A DNA stretch of 13,677 nucleotides, taken from IMG/VR virus record IMGVR_UViG_2703718850_000012, positions 1 through 13,677 of that record, one strand, 5' to 3'. This DNA comes from a virus. Lineage: Duplodnaviria > Heunggongvirae > Uroviricota > Caudoviricetes. This document shows, one piece after another, positions 9,001 to 12,000 of the stretch. The position numbers are program-made. Position 1 is the first letter of the stretch; every line of letters starts with the position of its first letter.

Positions 9001-12000
9001 AGTAGTTCAAGCGGGGAACATAACCACGTCTCAGGCCGGATAATTTCGCCTGACTGCTTATCCACTTTGGGCGTTACCCAGAAAACACCATCGGCGCGGC
9101 TTTCAACGCGGGGCTTTAATTCATCATCGCCATGGTTTTCTGTGATTTTTTTCTTTAAGGGCAACACCAGACTTTCCCCACGCTCGTATTCGTCTTTCAG
9201 TCGGGCAAGCTGTGGTGTCCAGTCCTCCAGTAGTTCGCCGTTCTCGTCACAAAAACTGACTTCCTTAACACCAGCTACTGCGAGCAGGGTTTCAATCTGT
9301 AGCGCCTGTTTGCCATCCAGCTTTCCGGCACGTCTGACCATGACGCGTAACCGGCCATCATCCACAATACGCAGGTTTTCCAGATTACCCAGGTCACGCC
9401 GTCCGATATAAACGGGCGGTATTTTGTCGCCGCGCTTTCCGGCTTCTCCACCCTGCCTGTAATGTTCTGCGTGGCTGTATGCGTCATCCCCCACAAAAAT
9501 TACTGCTTCCTCACCTTTATCTTTCGGCAATAGTTTTACGTTCGGTGCCAGTTTCATTTTTTACCCCTGAATCCGTTAAGCATTTTTCTTATGGCCTGAA
9601 TATTTACCCGTGCCTTCTCTTTGCTGGTGGGCTGGTTACGCGGCGCAGTCTGTACCAGGGAAAAATCACGCCGGAACTGATAAACAGGCATCACGCAGTC
9701 ATAGCCGTACCCATCACGGCGGTAAGTAACGCACCGTCCCGCCACGTGTTTAATCGTTACTGTGCCGCCGTAGTTATCCCGGAAAATATCGCCGGGGCGG
9801 ATTTCAGGCCGAGGGAGGCCGCTGGCAGTAAAGCCAGAATTTTTCTGTTTCATGGTTTTTATTCTCCGGTGTGATGCGCTTTATTATTCTCGTGAATTGC
9901 CATCACCGTATTTAATTCGTTAATTACTGGCGTTAATAATGTGTGCACGGCAGAAAACATCATGGGATATGATTCATCGCCATTTTCCGGCACTTCCATT
10001 AACTTAAGTAATAATGCCTCCATTTCCTTTGCGCGGATTAATGCATTCTCAGAATGAATAAGAACATCAAAAGGTATTTTATGCATCACACAGTTTCTCC
10101 CTGATTCTTTTAGTGTCCTCATTGAGGATGTCTGTAGCTTTTGTCAGTGAGTTTTTGGTAATTATTTTTATTGTTTTAAATTTTCTTTTGTCGTACTCCG
10201 ACTGTGATTTCCTCTCCATGATCTCTACCATGCAATTTATATCCACAAGCGCATGTATCAGTACTTTCAATGCTTCGCCTGCTGCGTCCGGCGTGTTTTT
10301 ATTGCACATGGCGCACCTCCTGACGAATACGGGCGGCGAATACCATCACGCAGCCATCAGGAGATTGCTGGCGGGCTTCCTGTTCGCTGGTGGCCTCGAT
10401 GTGAATCACGCGCGGTTGTGCCGTGCTCAGGGCGATAAAACGCCAGATGTATTTATTCAGGTTGTGCGAGTCCCGCCCTTGCGGGTGTGTGGTATGATTT
10501 AACATAGCTACCTCGATACTTCTGCTATCGTTGGTGGTTAGAAGCCCCGTTACTGCTCCAACAGTGCGGGGTTTCGTCGTTTCTGTGCCTTGCATCAATA
10601 AGGTGTAAGACACAATGTAAAATAAAAGTGTCTTACACGTCAACCCTTCAAAATAATTTTTTTTCGTGTATATTGTCTTACACCAAAAACATAAGGAGTT
10701 AGACATGGCAACAGGTCCAAAGAATGCAAAATCACAATCTGTAACTGCACGTATTGCCCATGAAATTATTGAAGGCATGGAAAAAGTGAAAGAAGAAGGC
10801 GAAAGTACAGGACAGTTTATAAGCGCAGCCATGCGTGGCGAGATCAAACGCCGCCAGCGCCGCCAGGCCAAAGAATCAGAATAAAAACAACCTGCGCCGT
10901 GGTGTGAGGAACTACGGCACATTGCTTTACAGGACAGCACCATGAATGATAACGAGTTAATAAAAACATCATCACCAATAAGAAAGAAACGGCGCAAAAA
11001 TATAGCGCATGAGTCTGAATCAGACAGATTCGCACCATGTGCTTTTGCTCTTGAGAAATTCCTAAAAGAGTACAGGAAAACGCGCCCATTGCAGGTATGG
11101 CAACGTAACGAACAAAAAGGTTGATGTATGACCAGAAAGCAGACAGATAACAAACCATTGCTACCAGAGAATAAATCAGCGGGATTTTTACCGGAAAAAG
11201 TGCTACATGAGCTAAAATTCCGCCAGCGTAAAAAATCCAAAGAAACAGACAAAGAATAACTTATGCACCAAATACTATACTGGCTCGGATCTCTGTTTGT
11301 ATTTGCATTTCTCATGAAATATTGCATTAGCAATGAACCTGCCGACAATGAAAGTACATGCGGGAGTGCTGAAAAAGATATTCCACTTCTCGTATATGAA
11401 AATGAAAGCCCTGTGCACCGCAATTGAGCGAAATTTAATGAATTCACTCTTTGCCCACCAGCCGCAAATGTGGCATTGTTGGCAATGCTCATGCGTTGGG
11501 GATAACGTGTAGCTTGTGTCGAATGGCCACCGTAGCAGGTGGCCTTTGTTTTGCCTGTTATCCGGCAATTGTGGCGCTTCGTCACACGGTTGATATAATT
11601 CCCCTGCACTGATCCATTTTTTTCGCAGCAGGTTAATTGTTCACAAGGGCGCTCCGGCAACGGGGCGCTTTTTGTTATGTTCATTGCGTTACACCTCACA
11701 CCATTACGCAGCCGTTCCGCGCGCTTCTTCCTCGCGTTCTTTCAACCAGGCCAGCACCTCATCTTCATACCAGCCAACACGGCGCAGACCGATTTTGAAG
11801 CCTTTCGGGAATTTTCCGGCGTTGATCATGTCCTGTAGCGAACTGTCTGCCTTGATGCGCAGAATATTTTTTACTTCCTGACGGGTAAGAATTTTTCTGA
11901 TTACTTCCATCGTGTTTTACCTCGTTAATCCGGCGTATTCCGGTGATAAATACGGTAAAGCAGGGCAGGGCGGGAAAAACAGTACTCACCGTTTTAAAAC

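Follow-up and report, generated by a model that had tools for sequence, protein, structure and literature searches.

A conserved candidate small RNA unit antisense to the head of a long open frame downstream of alpA in AlpA-type satellites of Escherichia coli

The stretch of DNA analysed here (13,677 nucleotides (nt) of the IMG/VR virus record IMGVR_UViG_2703718850_000012, hereafter the window, whose coordinates are used throughout) is an AlpA-type satellite with the organisation of a Gram-negative phage-inducible chromosomal island (PICI), and its gene order is the same as that of the model island EcCICFT073. On the minus strand, the integrase gene is followed by a small open reading frame (ORF), the regulatory gene alpA and a long open frame that runs into an Icd-like domain, beyond which lie a DUF4222 gene and a primase/helicase gene (Table 1). 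A preliminary description had proposed that a small RNA (sRNA) of about 70 nt, with an extended -10 promoter and a strong terminator, is encoded on the plus strand and converges on the 3' end of alpA, and direct reading of the window found every element that it had named in the place given for it. We refer to this candidate RNA as sRNA-2, and comparisons of the sequence with related islands make it very probable that a real, separately transcribed sRNA is encoded at 11606-11676.

Taken by itself, the promoter in the window is inconspicuous. The hexamer TTGTGG, which had been taken for a weak -35 element, is found at its place, but the spacing is wrong, since 19 nt from the -10 is too far; for this reason the promoter was not called by a sigma-70 consensus scan, and the case for it has to be carried by the extended -10. 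With 0.33 occurrences expected, the window has one copy of the motif TGNTATAAT, which was seen at least once in 57 of 200 shuffled sequences and is by itself not significant and proves nothing on its own. The terminator had been described as strong, and it ranked first among the 14 called between 9500 and 13677 (12 pairs, seven of them G-C), the call being made on the plus strand only. The 5' stem CCTGC/GCAGG fared less well as a part of the RNA: it is retained in two linked haplotypes of five pairs each (CCTGC/GCAGG and ACTGC/GCAGT), but its 5' arm starts only 4 nt past the -10, so that with a canonical start near 11606 most of this arm would lie outside the transcript, and it was rejected as a secure component of the sRNA. 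The plus-strand RNA 11606-11676 folds at -21.4 kcal/mol (z = -1.9), and the complement of the same interval on the minus strand folds no better than shuffled sequences (z = 0.02). The promoter spacer also holds a palindrome. In the commonest variant its two arms match perfectly (…CGCCACA), and other islands have TGGTC-ATTTC-GACCA in its place; its substitutions favour neither strand, and it may be a hairpin, or an operator through which the sRNA promoter might be shut off.

Missing conservation of the promoter and terminator pair in related islands had been named beforehand as an outcome that would speak against the sRNA, and the plus-strand pair of about 70 nt is conserved in these islands. 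When 131 bases around sRNA-2 were searched against 5,426 complete E. coli genomes, matches with identities of 85-100% were obtained in 444, with at least 80% of the query covered in 289 genomes and as many as six copies in a single genome. One strain that carries the island of the window is GB089, in which the corresponding interval lies at about 2,771,846-2,771,916 of NZ_CP013663.1. The block that is conserved in nine annotated loci reaches from 11446/11451 to 11676/11680 and the flanks vary; it stops at the last T of the terminator, and the sequence beyond differs (another alpA, a BRO-N gene or IS66). Two pattern scans of IMG/VR yielded about 140 further loci with 87 distinct sequences, which fall into at least five classes (A-E) with 5' parts unrelated in sequence and a common 3' scaffold composed of GTTC..AA.GG, the hairpin and a T-tract. 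Class A, to which the window belongs, has an extended -10 (TGnTATAAT) and a poor -35, and the promoters of the other classes read TTGCCC-17-TATCAT (class B), TTCACT-17-TATAAT (class C), TTCACA-17-TAAAAT (class D), and TTCACA-17-TACAAT (class E). The -10 hexamer is intact in 86 of the 87 distinct sequences and damaged in a single one, and its distance to the hairpin or scaffold is fixed in every class. The TG extension is confined to the classes with a poor -35, and those with a good one (TTCACA, TTCACT, or TTGCCC at 17 nt) do without it; such a trade-off between TG extension and -35 quality is how sigma-70 promoters work. For classes B, C, and D the promoter scan found one promoter-like site per 600 nt, namely the site upstream of the hairpin, the expectation being 0.4-0.6 anywhere on either strand of such a length. 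It is because of this conservation across relatives that the pair goes beyond chance. Of the two parts that a cis-antisense sRNA should possess on its own strand, the intrinsic terminator was found directly, and the sigma-70 promoter is recognised by conservation only, through the 86 intact -10 hexamers, the compensation between -35 and TG, and the calls in three other classes. The phage collection contained no match to the sRNA-2 unit, which P4 itself lacks, and a search of the genome contigs for AlpA returned only distant Acidobacteriota and other proteobacterial matches and was uninformative.

The same data bear on the possibility that no functional RNA exists, and that the hairpins only terminate the plus-strand YlcI/YnfO operon and shield alpA from convergent transcription, in which case the promoter motif would yield a by-product at most. 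Two plus-strand terminators do stand at the end of the plus-strand gene set and face alpA, and TGNTATAAT is a motif that chance can supply at the frequency given above; however, promoter and hairpin are kept in islands that have no upstream plus-strand genes (L014 and L016), and five classes unrelated in sequence each hold a -10 at a fixed distance, with compensation between -35 and TG and one damaged -10 among 87 sequences. We consider this explanation improbable.

Base pairs in the hairpins were counted for each sequence variant by script (the two terminator types being one base out of register). Among the 87 relatives the terminator occurs in 17 variants, none of which breaks the stem: 16 of them hold 10-11 pairs, flanking A.T and G.T pairs included, the remaining one holds nine, and the T-tract is always retained. 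A second form of the terminator, GCGGCTCC/GGGGCCGC, differs from GCGCTCCG/CGGGGCGC on both arms, with a T-tract in both. The hairpin of the upstream unit, which is described below, was found in 18 variants, again without a broken stem, and includes a compensatory variant (GGCCACC/GGTGGCC vs. GGCGACC/GGTCGCC). All single changes in the hairpins (GCGTTCCG, GCGGTTCC, GGCCATC, GGCCGCC, and GGCTACC) lead to G.U pairs on the plus strand, including the three that fall to the upstream hairpin, and the C-to-T changes of the terminator likewise yield G.U there; read on the minus strand, the identical changes would be A.C mismatches. RNAalifold, run on the ungapped MAFFT alignment, returned only five pairs; the shift of one base between the two terminator forms made this result uninformative.

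The strand on which the variation is tolerated matters for a further alternative, according to which the conservation belongs to the minus strand, either as the N-terminus of an Icd-like/Bro-network protein, as annotated in relatives by the Prokaryotic Genome Annotation Pipeline (PGAP), or as a leader structure of the mRNA. PGAP places an 'Icd-like' pseudogene over the equivalent of 11451-11684, long Icd-like coding sequences are annotated in L015 and L019, and no stop interrupts the minus-strand frame across the block in 86 of 88 distinct sequences. Against this, the variable columns of the 45 class A sequences are spread evenly over the codon positions of the minus frame (38, 41, and 39) and the predicted peptides differ widely across the block stretch (about 11489-11678), and the lack of a bias towards third codon positions therefore places the conservation of the block at the promoter and RNA level and not under a protein-coding constraint. 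In addition, the G.U changes on the plus strand would be mismatches here, the minus strand shows no excess folding, T-tracts follow both hairpins on the plus strand only, and the Pfam and NCBIfam matches of the long frame are restricted to its C-terminal 44 residues, all of which makes a minus-strand origin of the conservation very improbable.

The upstream unit, a second candidate named sRNA-1, brings both unit types in tandem in the window. In its 5' part it shows homology to the main sRNA of class B, the interval 11486-11552 folds at z = -2.9, and this unit also has a 5' hairpin. Its counterparts in other islands possess a better -10, TATGAT. The sRNA-1 hairpin and U-tract (11525-11550) resemble the terminator of IsrD (RF01388), a Salmonella island sRNA of 51 nt that is encoded between STM1261 and STM1263 with a shared divergent promoter (PMC2330248); homology to IsrD was rejected, as the match at 11508-11550, outside sRNA-2, scored 22.4 bits (E = 0.15), below the threshold of 37 bits, and the GGCGACC versions gave no match.

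In a sample free of selection for the sRNA, for which 80 loci were chosen solely by similarity of the Icd-like protein, the hairpin-2 scaffold was present on the opposite strand in 53. Six loci had too little upstream DNA to judge, which leaves 74 informative ones, and in the remaining 21 the head of the long frame is occupied by a terminator of the hairpin-1 type (GGCGACC-N-GGTCGCC TTTGTTTT), which is preceded in 19 of them by a promoter (TTGCCC-17-TATGAT, TATCAT, or TG-n-CATTGT) and forms the sole antisense unit there. In these hairpin-1 loci the ATG of the frame lies 7 nt past the T-tract. Altogether, none of the 74 informative loci is without an antisense terminator at this place, and a promoter precedes it in all but two.

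Table 1. Location of the sRNA-2 unit, its tandem partner and the neighbouring genes in the window (strand: +, plus; -, minus;., not strand-specific; aa, amino acids)
Feature	Position	Strand	Remarks
Extended -10 promoter element of sRNA-2	11591-11599	+	TGATATAAT; invariant in 9/9 E. coli loci
Weak -35-like hexamer	11569-11574	+	TTGTGG, 19 nt from the -10; GTGGCG at 17 nt, 3/6 matches
Palindrome in the sRNA-2 promoter spacer	11571-11587	.	TGTGGCG-CTT-CGTCACA
Arms of the 5' stem of the preliminary description	11603-11607, 11628-11632		CCTGC and GCAGG
Predicted sRNA-2 transcript	11606-11676	+	About 66-71 nt; inferred start 7 nt after the -10
Linker	11633-11648	+	TTAATTGTTCACAAGG; mostly A/U-rich, directly 5' of the terminator; GTTC..AA.GG kept in all classes (alignment)
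Intrinsic terminator of sRNA-2	11649-11676	+	Stem GCGCTCCG 11649-11656, loop GCAA, stem CGGGGCGC 11661-11668, TTTTTGTT to 11676
sRNA-1 candidate (upstream unit)	11451-11552	+	TTGCCC 11451-56, 17 nt, TG-n-CATTGT 11471-79
sRNA-1 terminator	11525-11552	+	Hairpin GGCCACC-GTAGCA-GGTGGCC 11525-44, TTTGTTTT 11545-52; called by scan
Integrase	12436-13677	-	
80-aa ORF	between integrase and alpA	-	
alpA (AlpA-family regulator)	11704-11910	-	PF05930, E = 4.5e-08; convergent with sRNA-2
Long open frame, eta/kil-like	10299-11699	-	466 codons; likely ATG 11684-11682, GAGG 11697-11694
Icd-like domain	10320-10451	-	NF033153, E = 9e-19; end of the long frame
DUF4222 gene and 710-aa primase/helicase	beyond the Icd-like domain	-	
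YlcI/YnfO gene	10666-10884	+	NF041551, E = 1e-18

The preliminary description had stated that no ORF fits the interval, which is inaccurate, as the whole of it lies inside the long minus-strand frame. The RNA does converge on alpA, but the transcript complementary to it is not the coding sequence of alpA or int: sRNA-2 ends 28 nt before the alpA stop, and it is the head of the long frame, codons 3-26, to which it is fully complementary in the window. Here, GAGG and ATG (11684) come 19 nt after the alpA stop, the complementarity sets in at +9, and the consensus scan called no alpA terminator on the minus strand. In a survey of 138 loci with an Icd-like domain within 3 kb, 101 had no stop in this frame between the sRNA and the last codon of the Icd domain, with open runs of 635-2,391 nt (median 1,092 nt, 84 distinct lengths), and the other two frames had medians of 20 and 22 stops over the same span. 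On its way the frame passes through the YlcI/YnfO gene in antisense. A Shine-Dalgarno-like motif (GAGG, GGAG, or GGGG) and an ATG are found just upstream in the window's flank type and in four others, and in other flank types the frame start overlaps the stop of a preceding ant gene (ATGTGTAA), comes after GGGGGGAG, or lies 13-81 codons further up. EcCICFT073 carries the unit as well, at about 1,380,010-1,380,090 on the minus strand of the CFT073 record NC_004431.1; its frame (L162, 29767-31053, 428 codons) has its start 53 nt behind alpA and its end in the protein annotated as Icd-like, and the sRNA lies opposite codons 82-107. Taken together, the long frame looks like an eta/kil-type frame as known from P4, one that would be kept open for the sake of translation rather than for its product.

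Two further features were noticed along this frame. Three small plus-strand ORFs (10942-11124, 11128-11259, and 11263-11427) lie in the same frame as YlcI/YnfO, each parted by a stop and one codon; they may be shadows of the mirror-image long frame, with which their third codon positions coincide, and not genes. Between the Icd-like gene and YlcI/YnfO, inside the long frame and in the position of the P4 PLE, back-to-back promoter-like sites are located at 10614-10674 (TTGACG-18-TACATT on the minus strand and TTCAAA-16-TATATT on the plus strand), overlapped by a perfect 11+11 nt inverted repeat (10603-10638), where a match to mir-3156 is spurious.

The long frame of P4 is eta, which ends as kil and has its translation coupled to that of the alpA homologue; translation of eta averts termination and lets late transcription proceed into the genes beyond it (PMC10111431). 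For Gram-negative PICIs no repressor is known; read-through into the gene behind alpA is activated by AlpA, and reporters in EcCICFT073 depended on AlpA both when inserted behind the alpA stop and when fused to the ORF that follows (PMC6092414). The openness of the long frame and the example of P4 suggest that it is translated, and transcription and translation alike would be expected from P4 (PMC10111431) and from the EcCICFT073 reporters (PMC6092414).

What the sequences of these islands show is a promoter and a terminator, both conserved and specific to one strand, their antisense arrangement, and a frame whose openness is conserved. These features lend themselves to a mechanism, of which we infer the expression of the sRNA, the translation of the long frame and all steps after pairing. 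In this proposal, sRNA-2 would be a member of an unannotated and modular sRNA family of AlpA-type E. coli satellites (Gram-negative PICIs and P4-like islands), variable in the 5' part and conserved in the 3' scaffold, and would be synthesised constitutively from the extended -10 promoter until the strong intrinsic terminator ends it short of alpA. It would pair with read-through transcripts from the alpA promoter over the first ~25 codons of the long frame, and this pairing would either stop translation of the frame or trigger cleavage of the duplex. The untranslated transcript would then be exposed to Rho-dependent termination, with the outcome that stray alpA transcription would fail to turn on icd and the primase, as the long frame leads into the Icd/Kil-like gene that heads the replication operon. 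The gating mechanism is suggested by the antisense geometry, by the missing call of an alpA terminator on the minus strand, and by the P4 precedent, and we put the chances of the full statement, a real sRNA together with cis-antisense gating of alpA read-through, as evenly balanced.

Four observations weigh against it. The position of the sRNA relative to the frame start varies, from codons 3-26 in the window and several flank types to ~82-107 in EcCICFT073, which excludes a block at the initiation of translation as the general mechanism. The block stretch of the long frame is without amino-acid constraint, and the frame overlaps the YlcI/YnfO gene. Some islands hold C4 and isrK besides the sRNA, which is then not the sole RNA regulator and would therefore be an additional layer of control and not a replacement. 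Lastly, the A/U-rich linker and the U-tail suit a trans-acting, Hfq-bound sRNA equally well. As regards the islands with both kinds of RNA, a P4-type isrK and one or two C4 RNAs were located farther down the same long frame in L021 (9391-9576; a frame of 819 codons) and in L121 (3235-3898).

The last of these points leads to the main rival, a real sRNA that is chiefly trans-acting and of the Hfq type, whose variable 5' part targets mRNAs of the host, of helper phages or of rival satellites, and whose antisense overlap is incidental. A mostly unstructured 5' part, a conserved A/U-rich stretch, a strong terminator and a U-tail fit such an architecture, discrete 5' classes on a common scaffold are what seed swapping is expected to produce, and the prophage sRNAs Esr41, Pas, and IsrK act in trans (PMC4825925). 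However, a comparison of exact 10-mers in 12 representatives revealed no recurring complementary site of at least 10 nt at a conserved place in the elements, and RNAduplex over the window gave no strong duplex near the start regions of icd or YlcI/YnfO. Moreover, the most conserved part is the 3' scaffold and not a 5' seed, and a purely trans action has no need of the location at the head of the long frame that is kept in all informative loci. We regard a mainly trans-acting role as a serious but rather doubtful possibility. A duplex of -40 kcal/mol at 3108-3167 was discarded as a target, being rich in G.U and without a sequence match.

The cis-antisense reading of sRNA-2 was also compared with known systems. 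Kinship with the small RNAs of P4 immunity, to which the preliminary description had appealed, found no support: C4, isrK, and c4-a1b1 were detected in P4 and none of them in the window, even at E <= 10. The C4/P4 CI RNA (RF01695, threshold 45 bits) was not found in the window in a search in which P4 CI scored 74.9 bits, and isrK, the P4 seqA leader (RF01394, threshold 50 bits), was found in P4, L021, and L121 and not in the window. A C4-type RNA lies on the same strand as its frame and has separate a and b (seqA/seqC) sites, but sRNA-2 is on the strand opposite to the Icd-like frame and no repeated complementary sites were found. What the two have in common is position and, as proposed, logic: as in the P4 immunity region (CI RNA C4, and seqA/isrK in eta/kil), sRNA-2 lies just downstream of an AlpA-family gene (vis/orf88 in P4) and inside a long frame with a Kil/Icd-like end, and in both cases a small RNA would prevent translation and transcription would end before the replication genes (PMC10111431). 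The P4 RNAs share the strand of eta, arise by processing of the PLE transcript and have separate target sites, whereas sRNA-2 lies on the opposite strand, comes with a promoter and a terminator of its own and pairs over its full length with the presumed target; the two match neither in sequence nor in structure.

Among phage RNAs, OOP of lambda (antisense to cII) and sar of P22 (antisense to ant) are short (about 70 nt) constitutive RNAs with intrinsic terminators that pair with the opposite transcript. sRNA-2 resembles them in having its own promoter and terminator and in converging into a regulatory gene region, but there is no homology, the target would be a long, apparently unconstrained frame instead of a defined regulator, and the tandem unit and the swappable 5' modules are absent from OOP and sar. 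The int-alpA RNA (RF02996, threshold 35.8 bits), a structured-RNA candidate of the same kind of island, occurs in the related loci L095 and L100 and gave no match in the window at E <= 10; its place is between int and alpA, on the same strand as alpA and some 2 kb away from the sRNA, and sRNA-2 is on the other side of alpA.

The comparison with Rfam 15 gave zero matches to the window among 4,227 families at the gathering score, Esr41 (RF02676) and other prophage sRNAs included, and at E <= 10 over 9400-12500 no family covers sRNA-2, the relatives having been searched too. Several candidates were discarded in this context: SpF41 and sau-6072 matched the terminator only (E = 4-8), Esr41 and the Pas sRNAs are lambdoid-prophage sRNAs unrelated to sRNA-2, and an antisense RNA of a type I toxin-antitoxin system would need a hydrophobic toxin ORF of <60 aa, where the frame has 466 codons and the Icd/Kil-like domain is 1.2 kb away. 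In the literature searched, the sequence was not found, and no sRNA or antisense RNA was described at this position for alpA, P4-like or PICI elements. Judged by its sequence, sRNA-2 is a new RNA family of a familiar kind, a putative antisense RNA of phages and satellites, without an Rfam family. It would be a new family for annotation in a region that PGAP leaves blank or calls an 'Icd-like' pseudogene.

The conserved antisense RNA candidate lies where AlpA-driven transcription must pass in order to reach the icd and primase genes. Its presence in EcCICFT073 makes it a concrete candidate that is accessible to mutation, and it touches the question of PICI repression; if the proposal is true, sRNA-2 may help to keep the island silent. 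It is also associated with a widespread eta-like frame in which openness is the only conserved property. In a doubtful and frankly speculative extension of the proposal, sRNA-2 and its tandem partner would be the missing negative regulator of Gram-negative PICIs, pairing, at the head of an eta-like frame, with read-through from the AlpA-activated promoter; this frame would be kept open for no other purpose than to let ribosomes shield it from Rho. The induction threshold would be set in this way, and the interchangeable 5' modules would serve as specificity groups that let several islands share one cell.

Among the remaining features of the window, a minus-strand terminator (12075-12050) between the 80-aa ORF and alpA is followed by two copies of GTGAGTAC around the palindrome ACCGTTTTAAAACGGT (about 11979-12010), and the region 11930-12079 is likely the alpA promoter or an AlpA-binding region. 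At the far end of the window (1125-3304, plus strand), the C-terminal half of a 563-aa ORF matches an antibacterial DNase effector of type VI secretion systems (NF047924, E = 5e-60); a 163-aa ORF precedes it with a 4-nt overlap, and the pair could be cargo of the island or belong to a neighbouring locus.

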